Assembly: GCA_965219205.1 (NCBI GenBank)
Contig: CBDCMQ010000005.1
Span: forward strand, 68,338 to 132,337
Length of the DNA: 64,000 nt
Direction: 5' to 3'
Source of the DNA: Dehalococcoidia bacterium
Lineage (GTDB): Bacteria > Chloroflexota > Dehalococcoidia > DSTF01 > WHTK01
Shown here: piece after piece, positions 1 through 9,320 of the stretch
Numbering within the stretch: the stretch's first letter is position 1
Layout: each line of letters opens with the position of its first letter
The notes under the pieces: model-generated
The model's database searches: none
What the model saw: only the letters and a program-made list of their open reading frames with translations
What the model was told of the DNA's origin: nothing
Translations under genes and position numbers: made by a program

Positions 1-21
1 TTCTTGGGTTTGGAGTTGAGG

Positions 22-48
22 GAGACGGATTCTCCCCCGTCTCCACCA
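22..48 (+). repeat. tRNA/tmRNA 3'-end-like att-type direct repeat, copy 1 (gagacggattctcccccgtctccACCA)
   Basis: Matches 5446..5472 at 23 of 27 positions, with a perfect 17-nt core gattctcccccgtctcc (28..44). It ends in CGTCTCC-A-CCA, an acceptor-3'-strand plus CCA arrangement. GGAGACG (21..27) is complementary to CGTCTCC (38..44). The window starts here, so any full RNA gene would lie upstream. Confidence 0.6.
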
Positions 49-191
49 GAGATATCCACCCTTCTGAATCTGAGAGTAATGATTCGAGGGGCATTTTCTT
101 GTGTTGGACAGCCTGAGTGAAAGCCTGACGCCCTGAATCGGGCCAGCCGGGCCTCGCAATGACACACAAGGCCACATTCCGTGCGGTGACT

Positions 192-359
192 CTAGGGCCC
201 GCCAAGCAACCGATCCATCGCAGTAGCAGCTTGTTCCTGCATATGTGGGAGAAGGTGGCTGTACGTTCTTAGTGTTGTGGTTGTTCCCGTCCGTTGATGA
301 TCACGTTGCTCCGTAGACAAGCGTAAACTATCTGCACATCTCGCCGCAGCTAGATCCAC
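192..359 (-). pseudogene. tyrosine recombinase (phage-type integrase) C-terminal remnant
   Basis: The 55-codon frame reads VDLAAARCADSLRLSTEQRDHQRTGTTTTLRTYSHLLPHMQEQAATAMDRLLGGP*. The tail TL.TYSH..P.MQ..AA..MD.LL is the catalytic-Tyr box typical of phage integrases. An in-frame TAA at 360..362 closes the frame upstream, so most of the protein is missing. Confidence 0.65.
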
Positions 360-378
360 TTAGGCGTGAGGAGGAGCC

Positions 379-1230
379 GTGCGTACAGATCTCGTCGAAG
401 TTACAACAACAGACGGGCTTGGTTTGTCGGGCGCATTTTTCGCTCCAGACAGGACGACCTCAGATTCAATTGATGCATTCGTCTTTTTCCACGGTGATGG
501 TGGTCATTTTTATCGGTCGCTCTATCTTGGGATGGGTCAACACTTCTCCGAACGTGGCGTCGCGTTTATCGCTGCGAATCGACGTGGACATGATATGGTC
601 GCCGGCGGTTCGCCTGGCGGTCGTCTGCAGGGCTATGCGTTTGAATCTGTCTCCGAATCCCCTTTGGACTATGAGGCCTGGCTGGACTTTCTGCGCAGCA
701 AGGGCTACACCAAGATTGCGATCGGTGGTCACAGTGGTGGTGCGGTCCGCGCCATTTACACCCAGGCCACAGACCCGCGTCCAGATATCGTCGCGGTCGT
801 CTCAGTTTCCCCAGGTGAATACGACCATCAAGGGATCGTCGCCCTCCATCATGAAGCATTTACTGGACCGTATGAGCAGGCAAGGCGAGATGTCGAGGCG
901 GGTTCTCCCGATACTTTCCTTCGACCAGGTGTTCCCTGGGGATCAATGTGGACGGCGCAAGCGTATACCGAGTGCTTCCATCCGGACAACCGGTATAGCG
1001 TCAGTCGCCATGCCGCAAACACTAACTGCCCAACTCTCTTTGTGTTTGGATCTGAAGAATGCGCAGGGCCGCAGATTCTTCCCGTTTGCGGCGCGGCACG
1101 AAAGGCACTCACCAAGGCAGGATATCCTCATGTGCGCGTCGAAACGGTCGAGGGGGCGAATCACGGGTATAACGACCGGGAGATGCGGTTGTATACGGTC
1201 ATCTCTGAGTGGATAGATAAAATCACGTAG
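379..1230 (+). CDS. alpha/beta hydrolase fold protein
   Basis: 283-aa ORF with nucleophile elbow GHSGG (IAIGGHSGGA). GTG start preceded by gaggaggag. Confidence 0.8.
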   Translation: MRTDLVEVTTTDGLGLSGAFFAPDRTTSDSIDAFVFFHGDGGHFYRSLYLGMGQHFSERGVAFIAANRRGHDMVAGGSPGGRLQGYAFESVSESPLDYEAWLDFLRSKGYTKIAIGGHSGGAVRAIYTQATDPRPDIVAVVSVSPGEYDHQGIVALHHEAFTGPYEQARRDVEAGSPDTFLRPGVPWGSMWTAQAYTECFHPDNRYSVSRHAANTNCPTLFVFGSEECAGPQILPVCGAARKALTKAGYPHVRVETVEGANHGYNDREMRLYTVISEWIDKIT

Positions 1231-1479
1231 ATCCGGGAAGGGTTAGAACGACACCCTGTGTGTCGCTCCAGTAGTACACCCGAGTGACAGTTAGTCCTCG
1301 AATTCGTATCTGGGCATGGTCCGAAAGCAGACATTTGCTCGCATTGGGGTTGTCGGGTAGAAGACGCCAATCCCGAGGTCAACGAGAGAGTAGATTAGCT
1401 GGCGGCCATTCGCGGACGCGGGCGTGACGACCGTCAAGACCAAAGACTTCACTTATCTTCGCCACCGTTTTTAAATCCT

Positions 1480-1508
1480 TTGACAACGTTGGTGCTCCGG
1501 CCCATGAT
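1480..1508 (+). promoter_or_regulatory. candidate sigma70-type promoter for the Rieske oxygenase gene
   Basis: TTGACA (1480..1485), a 17-nt spacer, then CATGAT (1503..1508), about 40 nt upstream of the ATG at 1548. Sequence match only. Confidence 0.3.
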
Positions 1509-1547
1509 AGGCCTCAAATAGGAGCCGGTTAATTTCGAGGAGATCAC

Positions 1548-2936
1548 ATGGTTAGCATCGAAAAGCACAATTCAGCCAAGTCGCTGGTCGATATGTCAAC
1601 AGGGGTGATCGATCGTGAAGTTTTCGTCAGCGATGAACTGTACCGGCTCGAACTCGAGCGCGTCTTCGCAAGAACCTGGCTCTTCGTAGGCCATGAGTCG
1701 CAGATCCCCAACCCTAACGATTACTTCGTGTCTCGAATGGGGGAAGAGTCTGTCATCCTTACGCGCGACCGCCAGGGGGAGATCCACGTTTTGCTGAACA
1801 CCTGCATGCATCGAGGCATGAAGGTCTGCCGCTACGACGAAGGCAACACGCCGGTCTTCAGCTGCCCGTACCACGGCTGGAGTTACTCGACGGATGGCAA
1901 TCTGGTCAGCGTCCCGGGCGAGCTTATCGGTGTACCGCAATTTGCCACGGCCTACCACGGGGAGCTGAAAAAAGAAGAATGGGGGATGATATCTGTCCCC
2001 AAGATGGCGGTCTATAAAGGGACCATCTGGGCATGCTGGGACGAGGAGGCGCCGGAATTCGTCGATTATCTTGGCGGAATGAAGGTGTTCTTTGACCAGA
2101 TCCTCGAGACGTCAGACGGAAATGATCAGGCGTTGGCTTTTGATGGCGTCCAGAAGTGGTTGATGCCCTGCAACTGGAAGTTTGCCGCGGAGAATTTCAT
2201 CGGTGACTTCTACCACGGCATCTCCCACGGGTCGGCGCCGCACCGCCGGCTTGGAGGGCGGCAGGCCGCGAATCCCGGCACCGGCGGCTCAACCGTCTTT
2301 TACGCGTTTCCCGAGGGCCACGGCACTCGCGGATACGCTCCCGAATATTGGGACGAAGAACTTGCCAGGGACCAGAGTACAACGAGGACGACACGCTTGC
2401 GCTCGGCGCAGTACGTCGAGACGGACGCCGAAAGATTACGGCAGTACATCGAGAGCAGCGCCGAGACGCGAGCGAACCGCGCCAAAGGCCGTGGCACCGG
2501 TACGAGTGTCTCTACAATTTTCCCGACCATGTCCACGCTGGACAGCATGGAGTCTGGCGGAGGTCTCACCATTGCCGTCTGGCACCCAGCAGGACCGAGG
2601 CTGACCGAAGCCTGGCGCTGGTATTTTGTCGATAAGAACGCGCCGCCTAACGTCCGGGATTTCTTACGACACCATCGACTTACCTGGTCTGGACCATCAG
2701 GCATGGTGGAAGAAGACGATATGGAGAACTGGAACTACGCTTCTGAGGCTAGCATGGGAACCATCGCAAAACGGTACCCGTACCACTATGCGCAAGGCCT
2801 CAAGCACGAAACAACAAATGAGGCAGTGCCTGGTGCTCTGCTGAGTGACACAGTCAGCAGTGAGCAAAACCAGCGCCATTTGTACAAGCGCTGGGCCGAA
2901 CTCATGGATGCCGAAAGCTGGAATGATCTCAAGTAA
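1548..2936 (+). CDS. Rieske [2Fe-2S] aromatic-ring-hydroxylating oxygenase, alpha subunit (divergent paralog 1)
   Basis: Rieske motif CMHRGMKVC...CPYHGW. Mononuclear-iron motif DFYHGISH. SD gaggag before the ATG. Confidence 0.9.
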   Translation: MVSIEKHNSAKSLVDMSTGVIDREVFVSDELYRLELERVFARTWLFVGHESQIPNPNDYFVSRMGEESVILTRDRQGEIHVLLNTCMHRGMKVCRYDEGNTPVFSCPYHGWSYSTDGNLVSVPGELIGVPQFATAYHGELKKEEWGMISVPKMAVYKGTIWACWDEEAPEFVDYLGGMKVFFDQILETSDGNDQALAFDGVQKWLMPCNWKFAAENFIGDFYHGISHGSAPHRRLGGRQAANPGTGGSTVFYAFPEGHGTRGYAPEYWDEELARDQSTTRTTRLRSAQYVETDAERLRQYIESSAETRANRAKGRGTGTSVSTIFPTMSTLDSMESGGGLTIAVWHPAGPRLTEAWRWYFVDKNAPPNVRDFLRHHRLTWSGPSGMVEEDDMENWNYASEASMGTIAKRYPYHYAQGLKHETTNEAVPGALLSDTVSSEQNQRHLYKRWAELMDAESWNDLK

Positions 2937-2942
2937 CCCGCC

Positions 2943-3155
2943 ATGACAAACCAATCCTCCAGCTACGAGTATGTTGACTTTTTCGAGGTTCAGGTTGGCG
3001 ACCGCTTACGAGTGGGCGAGGCCTTGATCGAGGTAGTCGATAACCCAATGGACGGCATATGGGTTCGCGGCAGGTTCTTGAAGGTCCCCAGCGACCCGAG
3101 CCTGGAAAATACGGAAGACCAGATTTTTCGCTTGGACGTGACGTCTCGAGCCTAG
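2943..3155 (+). CDS. small acidic hypothetical protein (70 aa) immediately downstream of the oxygenase alpha gene
   Basis: The ATG lies 6 nt after the alpha-subunit TAA. The translation MTNQSSSYEYVDFFEVQVGDRLRVGEALIEVVDNPMDGIWVRGRF... looks protein-like. No family recognised. Confidence 0.45.
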   Translation: MTNQSSSYEYVDFFEVQVGDRLRVGEALIEVVDNPMDGIWVRGRFLKVPSDPSLENTEDQIFRLDVTSRA

Positions 3156-3169
3156 CCATCCGACATACC

Positions 3170-3388
3170 AAGCTGGTTATCTCTACGCACGGGCGCTCGG
3201 GCATCTCCCGCGGGCGTCACGGCAGCGTCCCCGCAAGTCCGCCGGTGGGCTCCGCTTCAATTGGGGGCGGGACGATTAACGCCCATCCAGTGCTCAACGG
3301 GAGTTCAGCCAGCCCTGGACCATCTAGAGGGACGAGGATTCGGTTGAAGGCAGTGATGGCCGTCGCCTCTCGCCATGCTCCCTGTTCC
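3170..3388 (+). pseudogene. possible universal-stress-protein (UspA-family) C-terminal relic
   Basis: The frame of ORF 3059..3454 reads KLVISTHGRSGISRGRHGSV...AVASRHAPCS. This resembles the USP C-terminus (..G.HGRSG..R...GSV....V.RHA.CPV), but with about 42 extra residues (3230..3355) between GSV and RHAPC. No N-terminal half is present. Confidence 0.3.
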
Positions 3389-3677
3389 ACTCAGACTTCC
3401 CACGGTTTTGCCATGCCGTTTCTGTCAGTGGTCTCCAGCCATAATATAATATAGAATATACGTGCTAAGCCGAAAAGCCACCCGACCTAATCACGCTGGG
3501 CCAATTGCGTCTAGGAGCGACCCCTCGGCACCCTTACCAAGCGCCAAGTGCGACCGCCTCTTGGCCATCACTGCGGTTCCGGTCATGTCGTCCGATCACC
3601 TCCAGTGCATCGGCGCTACATGTGTTGGTCCCGTGTACCTGGTCAAATAGTGTTGTGGGGATTAGGCTCTTGCGGCC

Positions 3678-5099
3678 TCACTTCTTCTTCGGGATCGTCC
3701 GGGTCCCCAGGTACACGGCCCAAACTTCTCCGTTCGTGTCCCGCAAGAAGCGGAGCGGGCCTGTTCCCGGTATCAGGAACCTGTCCCGTCCAACCGGTAG
3801 GAGAGTCACAGTGGCTTCATCACGTGTCATCCGCAGACTGCCTTCCGCGACCGAGAGCTCCGGTGCCTGGCGTTCTGCCCAGAACACGCCCGTGTACTCC
3901 GCCAACTCCGACGCCTCCATCTCATACTCAGAGAACTCGACCCTCGGCGTCCCAAATGGAAGCCCGAGGACGGCGTTGAGAGCGCCGGTCATTATGCGCG
4001 GCGCCGGCGCAGCCGCCAGGTTCGTCAACGCCACAGCGGTGAAGCCTCTTTCTCTGACCAATGCCATGTCCGCCGCGATCCCCTTGTTGCCACCTCCGTG
4101 CCCGATCAGATCGACGCCGTGGTAGTCCTTGAGCACCTGGAAGCCGTAGCCGAAAGCGGCATCGAGCGGCGTCGCCATCTGGGGGCTGGTCATCATCTCG
4201 ACCGCCTCAGGCGACGCGACGCGAACACCCTTTACCGTGCCTTTATTCCGGTAGACCTCGAGGTAGCGCAAAAGGTCGCCGGTATTGGATGCCAGGCCGC
4301 CGTTGCCGACGATCTCGCCGATGTCGTGCCAGGCTGGTGACTGGAACACGCCGGCGGCCCCGCGCGCGAAGAGGCTGGTGGTGTTCTCGTGTTTCGCGAC
4401 CATCTCCGCCTGGGTTCCCGTGTGCTCCATCCCCAGCGGCTGCCAGATGTTCTCGCGAAGATACGGCACCATTGGCTTGCCGCTCACCCGTTCGACGACG
4501 CCCTGGAGTAGAGCGAAGCTCTCATTGGAGTAGGAGTGGTGGCTCTCCGGCGTCCCCAGCATCTCAAAGTACGCCTCGGCAATAAGCGCAAGTAGCCCGT
4601 TGTAGTCGGTGATGTCCTTCGCCGCGTACTCAGGTGTGAAGAAGGCCGACGGCAGCTGCTGGCCGTGAAGTTTCTTGATGTCCGGGTCGCGACGCATGCT
4701 CGGCCCACGGGCATGCACCAATAGCGGTTCCTCGGGCAGTCCGCTGGAATGAGACATCAGGTGGTGGAGGGTGATCGGCGCCTCCGATTTCGGTCGCGGC
4801 ACCCGGAACTCCGGCAGGAATTTGACCACCGGGTCGTTGACTGACAGGTTGCCGGCGTCCGCCAGCTGCATGATCGAAAGCGTTGTGAACGACTTCGTCA
4901 GCGAGCCGATGCCGAAGATAGTCTCCGGTGTTACCGGCAATCCTCGCTCCCGGTCGCGGAGTCCGTAACCACCCTCGTAGACAGTCTCACCATCGAGTGC
5001 GACCGCGACCGCGAGCCCCGGCGTCTCGCTCTCGGCCATCACCTGGCGATTAAACGCTTGGAATTCGGGAACCCATGCCGGCTGATTCATTACTGACAC
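3678..5099 (-). CDS. serine hydrolase, beta-lactamase/esterase (class C-like, PBP-related) family
   Basis: 473 aa with SxxK motif (GSLTKSF) and YxN motif (YSN). Confidence 0.85.
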   Translation of the reverse strand: MSVMNQPAWVPEFQAFNRQVMAESETPGLAVAVALDGETVYEGGYGLRDRERGLPVTPETIFGIGSLTKSFTTLSIMQLADAGNLSVNDPVVKFLPEFRVPRPKSEAPITLHHLMSHSSGLPEEPLLVHARGPSMRRDPDIKKLHGQQLPSAFFTPEYAAKDITDYNGLLALIAEAYFEMLGTPESHHSYSNESFALLQGVVERVSGKPMVPYLRENIWQPLGMEHTGTQAEMVAKHENTTSLFARGAAGVFQSPAWHDIGEIVGNGGLASNTGDLLRYLEVYRNKGTVKGVRVASPEAVEMMTSPQMATPLDAAFGYGFQVLKDYHGVDLIGHGGGNKGIAADMALVRERGFTAVALTNLAAAPAPRIMTGALNAVLGLPFGTPRVEFSEYEMEASELAEYTGVFWAERQAPELSVAEGSLRMTRDEATVTLLPVGRDRFLIPGTGPLRFLRDTNGEVWAVYLGTRTIPKKK

Positions 5100-5148
5100 A
5101 GTGCCGTGATCATGCTGCGGGTGATAAAGGCTGTCAATGCGACCAATT

Positions 5149-5178
5149 GCCTGACACTATGTCCTCATAGTGTCAGGC
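5149..5178. promoter_or_regulatory. perfect 12-bp inverted repeat (candidate operator or 5'-UTR hairpin) upstream of the serine hydrolase gene
   Basis: gcctgacactat (5149..5160), a 6-nt spacer, then atagtgtcaggc (5167..5178). Lies 50-80 nt upstream of the minus-strand start at 5099. Confidence 0.4.
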
Positions 5179-5436
5179 GCGAACACACCGCCATACTTAG
5201 CTACCCGTAGGGCCCGCCAGACGTAACGGACGGGTCCCATATAGGACATACACACATATGTATACCGCCGTACCACCCTCAGAAAACGGACCTACCCGGC
5301 ACCCCTCCACTAATCAAACTGGCTCAGCCTTTGACAGCCAGTTTGACAGCCTGCCCGAGCTACGGTCAGCATCTGCTTGCGACGGCCAAGAGCGTTTTTG
5401 AATCTACAGACTACCTCCACCTATCTCTGGCAACAC

Positions 5437-5481
5437 GGCGGTGACGAGTTCGATTCTCCCCCGTCTCCGCCAACTTTTTAT
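5437..5481 (+). terminator. tRNA-like hairpin followed by a T-run (possible intrinsic terminator of an unannotated plus-strand transcript)
   Basis: GGCGG-T-GACG (5437..5446) pairs with CGTC-T-CCGCC (5462..5471). The loop contains GTTCGATTC. It is followed by aaCTTTTTat. No plus-strand CDS ends here. Confidence 0.35.
5446..5472 (+). repeat. tRNA/tmRNA 3'-end-like att-type direct repeat, copy 2 (gagttcgattctcccccgtctccGCCA)
   Basis: Matches 22..48 at 23 of 27 positions. Carries a canonical T-loop-like GTTCGATTC, but the flanking T-stem does not pair. No tRNA body lies upstream. Confidence 0.6.
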
Positions 5482-5648
5482 GGCACTTTTGAACCCGCTG
5501 CGAATCGGTCGTTTTCGCAAAAGGCAAAAGGCGTATGGCCCTCGCCATGCATGATCTGCGTTGTGTACCTCATCCGAATCGCGGCGCGCAAGCAGCTAGC
5601 ATGCCGCGCTAGGTGGATCTGCGATGTTATGGCGTTAGTGAAGTCAGG

Positions 5649-7446
5649 CTAGGCGGCGCTGGCGAAGGTGTCTGTCTGCTTAATCTGAAACTGATACCAG
5701 CAGTTGAAGACGAACCATTGCCAGGCTTCGGCAATGGCTCGTTTTCTCCCTTGCCGGATGTTCTTATCTAACCAGCGAAGGTAGCTCTGCGTCACAATTC
5801 TATCATCAGCGAGTAGATTCAGGCTCGGCACCAGCATTCGGTTCAGCCAGCCAGGAATTGGCGCGCTCGGGAAGGCTTCGTGTTCCCGCTGATTGAAGTC
5901 GATCTGGAGGACATCACGGTAAGACTCTTTGAGCAGCGCTTTATCAAAGGCTTTCGAGTCGATTCCTTTGAACTTTGCTGGCACAGACACGGCAAACGAT
6001 GCTAATCGCGCATCCAGGTACGGCGCCCTCTCATCGAGCCCCAGTAAGGGTGGCATGTACCAGTAAGGGTGGCATGTATTGGTAGAAGAGACAGTTGCGT
6101 GATGCTGACCTGAGAACGATTCTGCCTAACGCTGGCCCCTGAACCTGGTCGAGCTCTTCTAATAGTTCGCGGTTTGCCAGTAGCGCTTCATCTAGAAGGG
6201 TCGTTTCGGGTGGGTGGACGAGGGCACGATTCATGCGCTCCCCCTTGAAGTACCTCCCTTTAAGTCTGGCGGACAACGCTTCGTCCAGAGACTCGAAGGT
6301 TATGCTCTCCTGCCCCCTTTGACGAAAAGCGAAAAGCTCTCCAGCTGCCCCGCCATTTATCACTGAGTCCAATCCACCTGCCAGCGCAGCCGTTGCCAAG
6401 AAGTACTCGCTAACGATGCGACCGGCCGAATCGAACGGCTCGTCAATTCGACGGAGTAAGGTGGACAGCAGCTCCGACGTTACTTCGGCCTCCGGGTCCA
6501 CCAAGATGGTTTGCTGCTGCGTCCCCGTAGCTCTCGCAACGCGTTCCGCCCAGGCGATTTCAGACTCACTGCTAGTTCTTCTATAAGCCAGCGTGAAGGC
6601 TTGTGCGTCGACGTGCCCGCTCTCCTTCAACGCGGACAACATCACCGATGAATCGACCCCGCCGCTGAGATACACACCGACCCTTTCAGCATCACCGACG
6701 GTTCGCCGGACCGCCTGCACCAATTCGTCTCGGGTCCGCTGAAGCCAGTAGTCGAAATCCTCCGGTCCGGTCTCTAACGTCGGGGACCAAAAGCGCTTGG
6801 TCTTCGCCCCAGTGAGAGCGAAAGAAATGCATTCGGCGGGTCGAAGCTTGCGAACACCCTTCGCCAGAGTGAACGGCGCAGCCGGATAGCCGTGGGAGAG
6901 GTAGACAGGCAAGACTGTTTCATCGAGCTGCCGGAGAACTGATGGGTGGGAGAGGATAGCCTTAAGCTCAGTCGAGAAAACTAGCAGCTTCCGCTTAGCA
7001 TCGTGATAGTAATAAACCAGCTTGTGGCCCATGGGGTCAGTGCTGATATGTAGGGTCTTTCGCCGCCGATCCCAGAGGAACAGGCTAAAGACGCCGTCCA
7101 TGGCTTCAGGGAAGGCCGTAGTGTTCTCTTCGAAGTGCGCCACGACGGAGCCCGCATGCGGGCTCTTCATGGAAGACGAGCGGCCCTGCGAATGAGTGGC
7201 TGCATCGTACATGTCGCCATCTACAGCCGCCACAACGTTCTCATCCTCGTGCCAGGAGGGAACATCCTTGCGATGGCCGAAGGTCGCAGTATGGCAGTAG
7301 GCGAGAGCAACGCCGTCGGCCGGATCCACGAAGGTCTTTTGGCCGTCTCGCGCCCGGTGCCGCGTCACGTCCAGCATCGCCTCCAGAGCTTCCGCCGAGG
7401 CCAACTGAGGATGGCCCCTGCTCAGAATCCCGCAGATCAGGCTCAA
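5649..7446 (-). pseudogene. asparagine synthetase (glutamine-hydrolysing, AsnB-like), interrupted by a 19-bp tandem duplication
   Basis: N-terminal ..CGIL Ntn-amidotransferase start and PP-loop motif SGGVDSS. The ORFs 6031..7446 and 5649..6056 overlap. Deleting one 19-nt copy gives a single 593-codon frame (YQYMPPLLGLDERAPYLD...). Confidence 0.8.
6049..6086. repeat. perfect 19-bp tandem duplication (2 x ccagtaagggtggcatgta)
   Basis: Read directly: 6049..6067 is identical to 6068..6086. The length is not a multiple of 3. Confidence 0.95.
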
Positions 7447-7702
7447 GGTCCCTCCCTCTGGATGATGACAAGTCAGCCCGAAACAGACTGCAGGAAGTCC
7501 GACCCTATTGCTTCGGCAGGTGAATCATCGCTCAGGCCGGAGCGCTTGTCGAAATTCGCGGCTCAGAGAGAGTCCATCTTCTAGTCGTACAGCCCCTCTC
7601 TCGGTCCTCCGCCGCTTTTGGGGCGGCTTCGGCCTATAGTGGTAACCGTTCGATGCGTAATGGACGCTTTTTTGAGATAGCTTGAAAGGTGATGAACCGC
7701 CA

Positions 7703-7906
7703 ATGCCTGAAGAACCGACCTCAGAGGAAATGACTTTGGATACGCTGCGCGGGCTTGCGAACCGGACTGGGCTTGAGATCCCCGACGATGAATTGGCTGA
7801 CATGATGCCGGGAGTGTTGCGCAACCTAGCGATGGCGAAGGCGGTTCGAAAATGGGCTGATGCCGGCGTCGAACCATCGACTGCCTCGCTGGCGCCGCGC
7901 TCTTAG
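7703..7906 (+). CDS. GatC/AtzG-like small subunit (67 aa)
   Basis: MPEEPTSEEMTLDTLRGLANRTGLEIPDDELADMMPGVLRNLAMAKAVRKWADAGVEPS.. follows the GatC pattern (A.la.L.l.deE......l..il.....l......gVEP). SD aaaggtga upstream. The stop lies 16 nt before the amidase ATG. Confidence 0.55.
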   Translation: MPEEPTSEEMTLDTLRGLANRTGLEIPDDELADMMPGVLRNLAMAKAVRKWADAGVEPSTASLAPRS

Positions 7907-7922
7907 GGTCCGGGGGTTAATC

Positions 7923-9320
7923 ATGGCAGCACCCGACACTCGCTTCCTGAGCATCGCCGAGGTTGGCGCCCTTCTAAGGCAGCGTTCGATTACCTCAACG
8001 GAGGTCACGCGGACCTCTCTGGACTTGATCGATTCGATTGACAACAAACTGCACAGCTTCATTCTGGTAACGGCCGACCTGGCGCTGGCGCAGGCTGCCA
8101 CGGCCGACGCTGATTTTGCCAAAGGGGTGGACCGCGGCCCGATGCAAGGCATACCGGTGGCGCTCAAAGACCTCTACGCGACCAAGGGCATTGCCACGAC
8201 CGCCCACTCTCGAGTCCTGATCGATTCGATACCAGAAGCGGACTCTGCGGCAGCGGAGTCGTTCCAGAACGCCGGCGCGGTCCTCATGGGCAAGCTGGCG
8301 ATGGACGAATTTGCTTTTGGTGTTTACGACGAGAACGTGCCCTTTCCTCCGGCGCACAATCCTTGGAACCTAGACCACGTGCCCGGCGGGTCAAGCTCGG
8401 GTTCCGGGGTATCGGTGGCCGCGGGTCTAGTCTTCGGAGCGCTCGGGTCAGACACAGGCGGGTCAATTCGCTTCCCGGCGGCCCACTGCGGCATCGCCGG
8501 CATCAAACCGACCTTCGGGCGGGTCAGCCGCCGCGGTGTCGTGCCGCTAAGCTGGTCGCTCGATCACGCCGGCCCGCTGGGCCGGAGCGTAGAGGACTGC
8601 GCCATTTTGTTGCAGGCGATCTCCGGATTCGACCCTGCCGACCCGGCTTCGGCCAACGTACCGGTGGCCGACTTCAGCAGTGATCTCAATGCCGGCATTC
8701 GCGGGTTGCGCCTTGGGGTGCCGCGAGACTGGCTCAACGAGGGTGAGGGTACGGTCCCTGAAGTCGTTGCGGCCTTTGAACGCGCTCTCGAGACCCTGAC
8801 CCAGCTTGGCGCAATCCTGGTCGATCTTCCCGGCGAACCGTTTATCGATGCCCGGCCCGCCAATTCGATCATTTCGATCTCAGAGGCCTTTGCTTATCAC
8901 GAGGAAACGGTGCGCACGCGGCCCCAGGACTTCACACGGAACGTGCGAAACCGGATAAGGGAAGGCGCATTTGTAAGCGCGTCTGACTACGTGCAGGCGC
9001 AAAGGGCGCGCGTGGCTCTGCGTGCAGAAATCGACTCGATTCTGGACGGTGTGGACGCCATTGTTTCGCCGACCGCGCCGGCAACGGCCGAACGATTCGA
9101 CTCGCAAGACCTTGCCGGACGCTTTCGCAAGCCGTCGTTTGCCAACCCAGCCAACCTAACCGGGTTTCCCTCGATCTCGGTTCCCTGTGGTTTCTCTGAG
9201 GCGGGCTTGCCAATGGCTCTGCAGTTCACCGGCCGCGCCTTCGATGAGGTGACGATGTTTCGGCTGGCGAAGGCTTACGAGGATGCTACCGACTGGAGTG
9301 AAAACCACCCCTCGATTTAG
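7923..9320 (+). CDS. amidase-signature enzyme (GatA/AtzE-like)
   Basis: Amidase signature GGSSSGSGVSVAAG and GIPVALKD. The N-terminus MAAPDTRFLSIAEVGALLRQRSITSTEV resembles GatA. The start is taken at ATG 7923, because the longer ORF from 7860 would overlap the small ORF. Confidence 0.85.
   Translation: MAAPDTRFLSIAEVGALLRQRSITSTEVTRTSLDLIDSIDNKLHSFILVTADLALAQAATADADFAKGVDRGPMQGIPVALKDLYATKGIATTAHSRVLIDSIPEADSAAAESFQNAGAVLMGKLAMDEFAFGVYDENVPFPPAHNPWNLDHVPGGSSSGSGVSVAAGLVFGALGSDTGGSIRFPAAHCGIAGIKPTFGRVSRRGVVPLSWSLDHAGPLGRSVEDCAILLQAISGFDPADPASANVPVADFSSDLNAGIRGLRLGVPRDWLNEGEGTVPEVVAAFERALETLTQLGAILVDLPGEPFIDARPANSIISISEAFAYHEETVRTRPQDFTRNVRNRIREGAFVSASDYVQAQRARVALRAEIDSILDGVDAIVSPTAPATAERFDSQDLAGRFRKPSFANPANLTGFPSISVPCGFSEAGLPMALQFTGRAFDEVTMFRLAKAYEDATDWSENHPSI

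Follow-up and report, generated by a model that had tools for sequence, protein, structure and literature searches.

Two decayed islands probably stacked at the transfer-messenger RNA gene of a Dehalococcoidia bacterium

A 5.4-kb stretch at the left edge of a 64,000-nucleotide (nt) window of the genome of a Dehalococcoidia bacterium (assembly GCA_965219205.1, contig C5, C5:68338-132337; genome of 2.98 Mb in nine contigs, 88% complete) had been predicted to be a single decayed integrative island, bounded by direct repeats that resemble the 3' ends of transfer RNA (tRNA) or transfer-messenger RNA (tmRNA) genes and carrying the stump of an integrase gene. Our analysis leads to a different reading, to which we assign a probability of roughly 85%: two dead islands are stacked at the tmRNA gene (ssrA), a later one that entered with a serine integrase (segment A) and an older one that entered with a tyrosine integrase (segment B). 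Throughout, "the window" is the whole 64,000-nt stretch, positions without a contig label are window coordinates, labels such as C5 and C3 denote contigs of this genome, and labels of the form G012 denote its relatives.

From left to right, the locus consists of ssrA, segment A (C5:49082-68364, 19.3 kb), the first copy of the repeat, segment B (window 49..5445, 5.4 kb) and the second copy. The features at the segment ends, including the attachment (att) sites, are as follows.

1..27, plus strand: right end of segment A, whose reconstructed attP has its left arm, GTTTGGAGTTGAGGGAGACGG, at 8..28
28..48, plus strand: core of copy 1, 21 nt identical to the ssrA 3' end (GATTCTCCCCCGTCTCCACCA); attR of segment A and attL of segment B
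49..191, plus strand: P' arm of segment B; a hairpin at 59..91 runs into a U-rich stretch, and 104..113 carry one arm-type-like motif, TTGGACAGCC
192..359, minus strand: putative tyrosine-integrase stump, with integrase homology only in the codons of 195..284 (TTTTLRTYSHLLPHMQEQAATAMDRLLGGP)
5330..5351, plus strand: tandem arm-type-like repeat, TTTGACAGCC-AG-TTTGACAGCC, in the P arm of segment B
5446..5475, plus strand: copy 2, a displaced ssrA 3' fragment matching at 29 of 30 nt, with A changed to G; attR of segment B

Three copies of the tmRNA 3' end

The two repeats are as first described. The 27-mers at 22..48 (copy 1, gagacggattctcccccgtctccacca) and 5446..5472 (copy 2, gagttcgattctcccccgtctccgcca) are identical at 23 of 27 positions and share an uninterrupted core of 17 nt (gattctcccccgtctcc); both terminate in (A/G)CCA, and GTTCGATTC is present in copy 2. 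Their proposed origin as duplicated 3' ends of a tRNA or ssrA gene also holds, because a third copy of the core forms the end of an intact ssrA. ARAGORN, run on the whole genome, finds one tmRNA gene, at C5:48730-49081 on the plus strand, with the tag GEKELALAA. Its 5' end is GGGGACG, exactly the acceptor strand that had been deduced from the repeat, and its 3' end reads ...GGGGAGTTCGATTCTCCCCCGTCTCCACCA.

With up to two mismatches allowed, the core occurs at three sites in 2.98 Mb, namely the ssrA terminus, copy 1 and copy 2, all on the plus strand of C5; the search also gave one unrelated two-mismatch match on C3. The ssrA terminus lies 19.3 kb upstream of copy 1 on the same strand, and copy 1 shares with it a perfect 21 nt (window 28..48, C5:68365-68385), with GGGAG also common further left, beyond three mismatches. 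This identity starts at the G that follows TTC in TTCGATT, that is in mid T-loop, as in DsiB-type islands. Copy 2 (window 5446..5475), again on the same strand, has 29 of 30 nt in common with the end of ssrA, the exception being G in place of the discriminator A. The evidence supports the repeats as copies of the tmRNA 3' end of the type that site-specific integration produces.

The evidence favours the core as an island boundary, as had been proposed, and we regard the chance that it is a dispersed repeat or a fortuitous match as negligible. Nothing was found in favour of that explanation; there are only the three copies in 2.98 Mb, they are collinear within 25 kb, and one of them is the ssrA terminus. 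Matches at 15 or more of 21 positions elsewhere on the contig number seven, not far from the 1-5 obtained by shuffling, and the best of them reaches no more than 16 of 21. Further degenerate copies of the ssrA end were sought on C5:40-140 kb, and none stood above shuffle expectation.

The original prediction had a complete tRNA or tmRNA gene terminating in the left repeat, at window position 48, with a single decayed island to its right. The repeats are real and derive from tmRNA, and an integrase stump does lie beside copy 1, which speaks for such an arrangement. However, ARAGORN places no gene end at 48 and puts the end of the only tmRNA gene 19.3 kb upstream, at C5:49081, and copy 1 is preceded by a primase-like gene that belongs to segment A; together these findings leave the single island scarcely credible. 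Nor does ARAGORN report a tRNA or tmRNA gene at copy 1, at copy 2 or in the 15 kb upstream of the window. An Rfam scan of window 1..8000 with E-values up to 10 gave chance-level matches only, the ssrA fragment being too short.

Another candidate source of the repeats, tRNA-Sec, was suggested by an 8+5 geometry and by G73 of copy 2. It was ruled out: the tRNA-Sec gene (C3:102103-102199) has another 3' end, whereas ssrA matches exactly.

Copies of the ssrA end also occur in a different arrangement in two relatives. Directly downstream of ssrA, tandem copies of its last 27-41 nt are found at ~90-nt spacing, six in G037 (G037:C15:98636-99205) and two in G028 (G028:C68:56372-56490). This spacing is far too tight for islands, and the copies could be a short repeat array derived from att sites.

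Segment A and its serine recombinase

The open reading frame (ORF) that abuts ssrA (C5:49001-49870, minus strand) matches PF07508 (E=2.9e-5) and phrog_95, annotated 'integrase' (E=1e-21, profile positions 306-562 of 651). Just upstream of it lies a resolvase domain (PF00239, E=2.3e-19) that is split across two frames. The recombinase gene as a whole (C5:50520-48935, minus strand) stands beside attL and aligns to residues 5-538 of an intact orthologue of 561 amino acids (aa) in G018; relative to that protein its reading frame is disrupted twice, by a frameshift near C5:50190-50205 and by an in-frame stop near C5:49997. The ORF reads antisense through the last ~80 nt of ssrA (..WWRRGRIELPVQ..). 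Given the frameshift and the stop, segment A, like segment B, is probably immobile.

The closest relative, G012 (one contig, tmRNA 95% identical), provides the empty site for segment A. It lacks the segment, and its ssrA, ending in ACCA, is joined directly to a flank homologous to window 49 onward, which includes a longer remnant of the integrase gene (int) and a hydrolase gene whose product is 95% identical in aa sequence.

To rebuild the attP of segment A, we placed the 21-nt core between the last 40 nt before copy 1 and the first 40 nt after ssrA. This gave GTTTGGAGTTGAGGGAGACGG-ATTCTCCC-CCGTCTCCACCAACTCCAAAC, a 50-bp dyad in which 19 of 21 arm positions match; CCGTCTCCACCAACTCCAAAC runs from the end of ssrA into the sequence downstream. 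Its dyad score is 15, against a mean of 5.0 and a maximum of 10 for random flanks placed around the same core, and none of the 400 null junctions reached 15. This is the form expected for the attP of a serine integrase, and it explains the 8-bp hairpin seen inside copy 1.

Other genes of segment A encode two Rieske oxygenase alpha subunits, one beta subunit, an SBP_bac_5 binding protein and an IS481-like transposase. At its right end (C5:61345-68259, minus strand) are a fusion of ParB_N with an N6/N4 (N6_N4) methylase, a Terminase_4 small subunit, a primase-like gene and several ORFs without assignment. This block resembles a module of a prophage or phage satellite carried within the ssrA island.

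Segment B and its probable tyrosine-integrase remnant

The 55-codon minus-strand frame at 192..359, ending in ..TLRTYSHLLPHMQEQAATAMDRLLGGP, reads as had been claimed. Its assignment to the C-terminus of a tyrosine integrase gains support from homology, although not from a match to PF00589. At the same place G012 has a longer remnant, ending in ..LIINGRERLPLTIISEMLGHGDITTTLRIYQHVLPSTQGQAANAMDRIFGTR and a stop, in which the box II motif is present; it aligns with PF00589 positions 143-169 of 172 (E=0.003) at 17.7 bits, below the cut-off of 27.1 bits. The stump is 67% identical to this remnant over 27 residues (E=7e-8), and upstream of 284 its frame is shifted relative to it. The G012 remnant in turn matches the ends of many ORFs of 360-435 aa in relatives, as well as remnants next to ssrA fragments in G003 and G014. 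The two best PHROG matches of the stump are the extreme C-termini of integrase profiles. In the six-frame translation of its own genome, the next best matches of the stump are integrase C-termini or remnants that adjoin tRNA genes, at C6:10375, C3:413714 and C3:111057. Taken from sequence comparison, these relationships support the stump as a probable relic of a tyrosine-integrase C-terminus. A six-frame PF00589 search of the genome found no tyrosine recombinase between ssrA and copy 2, and in G002, which has a B-type flank, no intact tyrosine integrase adjoins ssrA.

Two of the integrase remnants elsewhere in the genome can be placed precisely. The one at C3:413714-413782 adjoins tRNA-Trp/Ala (C3:413880-414063), and the one at C6:10162-10446, which contains an in-frame TAG, adjoins tRNA-Leu (C6:10554-10642).

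A flank homologous to 49..191 directly follows ssrA in both G012 and G002. The hairpin at 59..91 is kept there with compensatory changes (-15.4, -17.8 and -21 kcal/mol), and together with the U-rich run it may be a terminator that the element supplies to the regenerated ssrA. At the other end, copy 2 and the ~115 nt to its left are 70% identical to the region around an ssrA fragment in G025, a member of a different family in the same order; the match includes the tandem TTTGACAGCC-AG(C)-TTTGACAGCC and the same GACGAG beside the core. The motif TTKGACAGCC (TT[TG]GACAGCC) has 17 sites genome-wide, with ~12 expected. Three of these lie within ~120 nt of the repeats, all on the plus strand, one after copy 1 and two before copy 2, and the motif beside the repeats is conserved in G012 and G025. 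By their placement, which is that of a tyrosine-integrase attP, they are putative arm-type integrase sites.

Could copy 2 instead be the right end of an older serine-recombinase island, with the tyrosine stump an unrelated passenger or a third element? Serine-recombinase islands predominate at ssrA in this class, and the G015 fragments that close such islands share ssrA identity from GAGTTC, as copy 2 does. Yet no serine-recombinase remnant lies between copy 1 and copy 2, and TTKGACAGCC on both flanks is typical of the arms of a tyrosine-integrase attP, not of a short serine attP. In addition, the reconstructed attP of segment B has no dyad above the null, and the B-type flanks of G012, G003 and G014 each adjoin a tyrosine-integrase remnant. 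We consider an older serine island very unlikely and retain the reading of segment B as a tyrosine-integrase remnant.

A possible order of events

If two islands are indeed stacked here, each insertion would have regenerated the ssrA 3' end on its left and displaced the previous 3' end to the right. Segment B would have arrived first, as a tyrosine-integrase element recombining in the part of ssrA from the T-loop to the 3' end. Its left side would have kept the P' arm, the terminator-like hairpin, one TTGGACAGCC and the last ~30 codons of int, reading toward ssrA, and its right side the P arm with two TTTGACAGCC and the displaced ssrA fragment that is copy 2. Truncation of int would predate the split from G012, and the interior would have been rearranged since. 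Segment A would have followed as a DsiB-type, ssrA-specific island with a large serine recombinase; its crossover is predicted inside GATTCTCCCC. Copy 1 would then be a hybrid junction, in which the right end of segment A coincides with the left end of segment B.

Evidence against stacking and the mosaic interior of segment B

Several findings weigh against this reading. None of 40 relatives joins ssrA to the flank that follows copy 2, and no empty site lacking 49..5445 was found among them. In G012, where a counterpart of copy 2 was sought, there is none, and aat-clpA-clpS stands where this genome has the Rieske gene. A search of the stump with PF00589 at E-values up to 10 gave no match, as is to be expected when only about ten profile positions can be covered by the stump, and its PHROG E-values are only 0.08 and 0.11. 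Segment A contains no DsiA-like second recombinase or second resolvase-domain gene, and its ParB-methylase gene is at the far (attR) end, not adjoining the integrase. The recombinase lesions could be assembly errors of a metagenome-assembled genome. The attP dyad is not general, since two serine-recombinase elements in G015 have no dyad above the null. Finally, the G+C content of segments A and B does not deviate from that of the genome.

As for cargo, the view of the locus as an immobilised island remnant stands to the extent that a 5.4-kb remnant is present; the list of cargo genes is only partly safe, the interior having been rearranged relative to G012. The genes concerned are as follows.

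379..1230, plus strand: alpha/beta hydrolase, an accessory gene; an orthologue 95% identical is at the same place after ssrA in G012
1548..2936, plus strand: Rieske oxygenase alpha subunit; not at this place in G012
2943..3155, plus strand: mini-ORF of 70 aa following the Rieske gene; not at this place in G012
3678..5099, minus strand: beta-lactamase-family serine hydrolase; its G012 counterpart, 95% identical, has the opposite orientation

The alpha/beta hydrolase is sporadic among the relatives, as accessory cargo would be, with an orthologue in G012 only and paralogues of at most 36% identity in the others. Homology of the serine hydrolase to G012 stops exactly at the start codon (breakpoint ~5100). 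Between its copies of these two genes, G012 (L034:14676-18107) has clpS, clpA (apparently as two overlapping ORFs) and aat. In our genome the closest counterparts of this clpS and clpA reach only 66-71% identity and are on another contig (C9:161951-162921), and the aat of G012 has no match above 60% identity in it. Synteny resumes at an amidase, a second hydrolase and a dehydrogenase.

A further discontinuity lies near the left end of segment B. Identity to G012 is ~97% right of window 284 and ~65-75% over 49..283 (L034:19040-19260), with a 46-nt gap in our genome. The attL-proximal patch of segment B was probably replaced by a related element, and the identity break at 284 together with the gap would make the stump a chimera of two related integrase alleles. 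The same break and gap, the missing copy 2 of G012, the differing gene content and the inverted serine hydrolase with its breakpoint at the start codon could mean that segment B was never one element. Its attL side (49..283) and attR side (5330..5472) would then come from separate integrations of related tyrosine-integrase elements, with chromosomal genes captured by rearrangement and internal junctions lost. One motif family occurs on both flanks, which argues against separate origins; we regard this history as unlikely, though with an appreciable chance of being right, and it refines rather than contradicts the reading of two islands. With copy 2 lacking in G012 and gene content differing, segment B is not a clean unit, and it is best called a mosaic remnant.

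Overall, the original prediction is partly supported. Two results that it had named as counting against it were obtained, since no tRNA or tmRNA gene ends at position 48 and the stump has no match to PF00589, yet its core idea stands on better evidence.

Beyond copy 2, at window 5649-7446, an asparagine-synthase-like gene is split into overlapping ORFs of 471 aa and 135 aa, both with ..MPPLL... It has at least 16 paralogues in this genome, several with in-frame stops.

Serine recombinases at ssrA across the class

Within the order, orthologues of the segment A recombinase gene abut and overlap ssrA in several genomes. G018, G033 and G039 have intact genes, whereas only remnants are left in G004, G011, G007, G015, G021 and G040; G015 has two recombinase genes in tandem, each next to an ssrA copy. 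In a class-wide search with a profile built from five ssrA-abutting recombinases, 80 loci were retrieved, all of them in Chloroflexota, including Dehalococcoidaceae, Dehalogenimonas, Dehalococcoidales, SAR202 and Tepidiformaceae. Sixty loci were scanned for tmRNA, and 42 of these 60 Dehalococcoidia loci have an intact tmRNA gene that converges on the recombinase gene and directly adjoins its 3' end. The profile matches include proteins of Dehalococcoidaceae (36-42% identity) and Dehalogenimonas (34%), mostly adjoining tmRNA, and the recombinase of segment A is a candidate member of the clade at ssrA in these two groups.

In G014, a relative assembled as one contig, a cluster of two ssrA 3' fragments, a serine-recombinase gene and a tyrosine-integrase remnant (G014:C1:872261-875319) lies ~585 kb from ssrA on the opposite strand, which suggests a large inversion or a displaced array.

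The recombinase ORF of segment A crosses attP, and its C-terminal tail would therefore differ between the two states: ..RI-ELPVQMKNVEDLLQAYLGI and a stop when integrated, and ..RI-RLPQLQTQEIIVPHSLKTHWGAFGVGWVA and a stop in the reconstructed circle (window 1-177, minus strand; C5:49001-49110). A tail switch might tune the stability or directionality of the integrase and so act as a built-in sensor of the integration state, an idea raised for dsiB with no test made (McMurdie 2011; PMC3146451), but we think this improbable. Were it true, the nearly perfect 50-bp palindromic attP that mimics the tmRNA acceptor strand would be a compact site enabling the switch.

Comparison with known integration systems

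How does the locus compare with described systems? [quoted passage not shown] Segment A is like these DsiB-type islands in many respects. It is part of a tandem of islands downstream of a single ssrA in the same bacterial class; its large serine recombinase of ~540 aa is encoded on the reverse strand beside attL by an ORF that runs into ssrA; and it has a ParB-domain gene and a methylase gene. Islands without a working integrase occur in both cases, and segment A is absent at the same site in the close relative G012.

There are also clear differences. Segment A is in a different order and genus within Dehalococcoidia, and its cargo consists of Rieske oxygenases, a binding protein and an insertion sequence (IS) element, not reductive dehalogenases. 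The six-gene module beside attL of the DsiB-type islands (DsiB, DsiA, RecF-like, ParB, Mom and a 700-aa protein) is not present as such in segment A, where the ParB-methylase gene stands at the far end with the small terminase and the primase-like gene. The motif left of the repeat is unlike the published TTCAGRSMGMRKCCA, and the recombinase gene here is a pseudogene. The palindromic attP, with 19 of 21 positions matching, is not mentioned in PMC3146451, whose main text does not contain the term 'inverted repeat'.

Segment B resembles tyrosine-integrase islands of the Islander type. In both, the 3' part of ssrA is the target, the gene is regenerated with int (here a putative stump) beside it, a displaced 3' fragment marks the far end, and islands stack by repeated use of one site. 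However, no more than the last ~30 codons of int are left in segment B, rearrangement has affected its interior, and a second island with an unrelated recombinase family now separates it from the regenerated ssrA.

With the large serine integrases of phages and SCC elements (phiC31, Bxb1, CcrB), segment A shares the architecture of resolvase, Recombinase and zinc-ribbon domains, and a short (~50 bp) dyad attP around a small central spacer. It differs in that it inserts at the 3' end of an RNA gene and has to rebuild that end, and in that the recombinase ORF crosses attP. As a consequence of the rebuilding, attP and attB are identical over 21 nt, and a long direct repeat is seen at attL and attR.

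Implications

Both kinds of island are already described, as is their stacking at ssrA in this class. What is added is small, namely a palindromic attP and one junction common to two recombinase families, and the understanding of how such islands work is unchanged by these results. The annotation of the locus is corrected to two stacked islands with two unrelated recombinase families, one tmRNA site and a shared junction at copy 1, at the confidence stated above. The DsiB-type ssrA island, known from organohalide-respiring Dehalococcoides, is extended to another order of Dehalococcoidia, with aromatic-ring oxygenases as cargo. The locus also offers a natural pair of serine-integrase sites, a 50-bp palindromic attP and the invariant 3' end of ssrA as attB. 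This pair is a candidate integration tool for Chloroflexota, which lack genetic systems.

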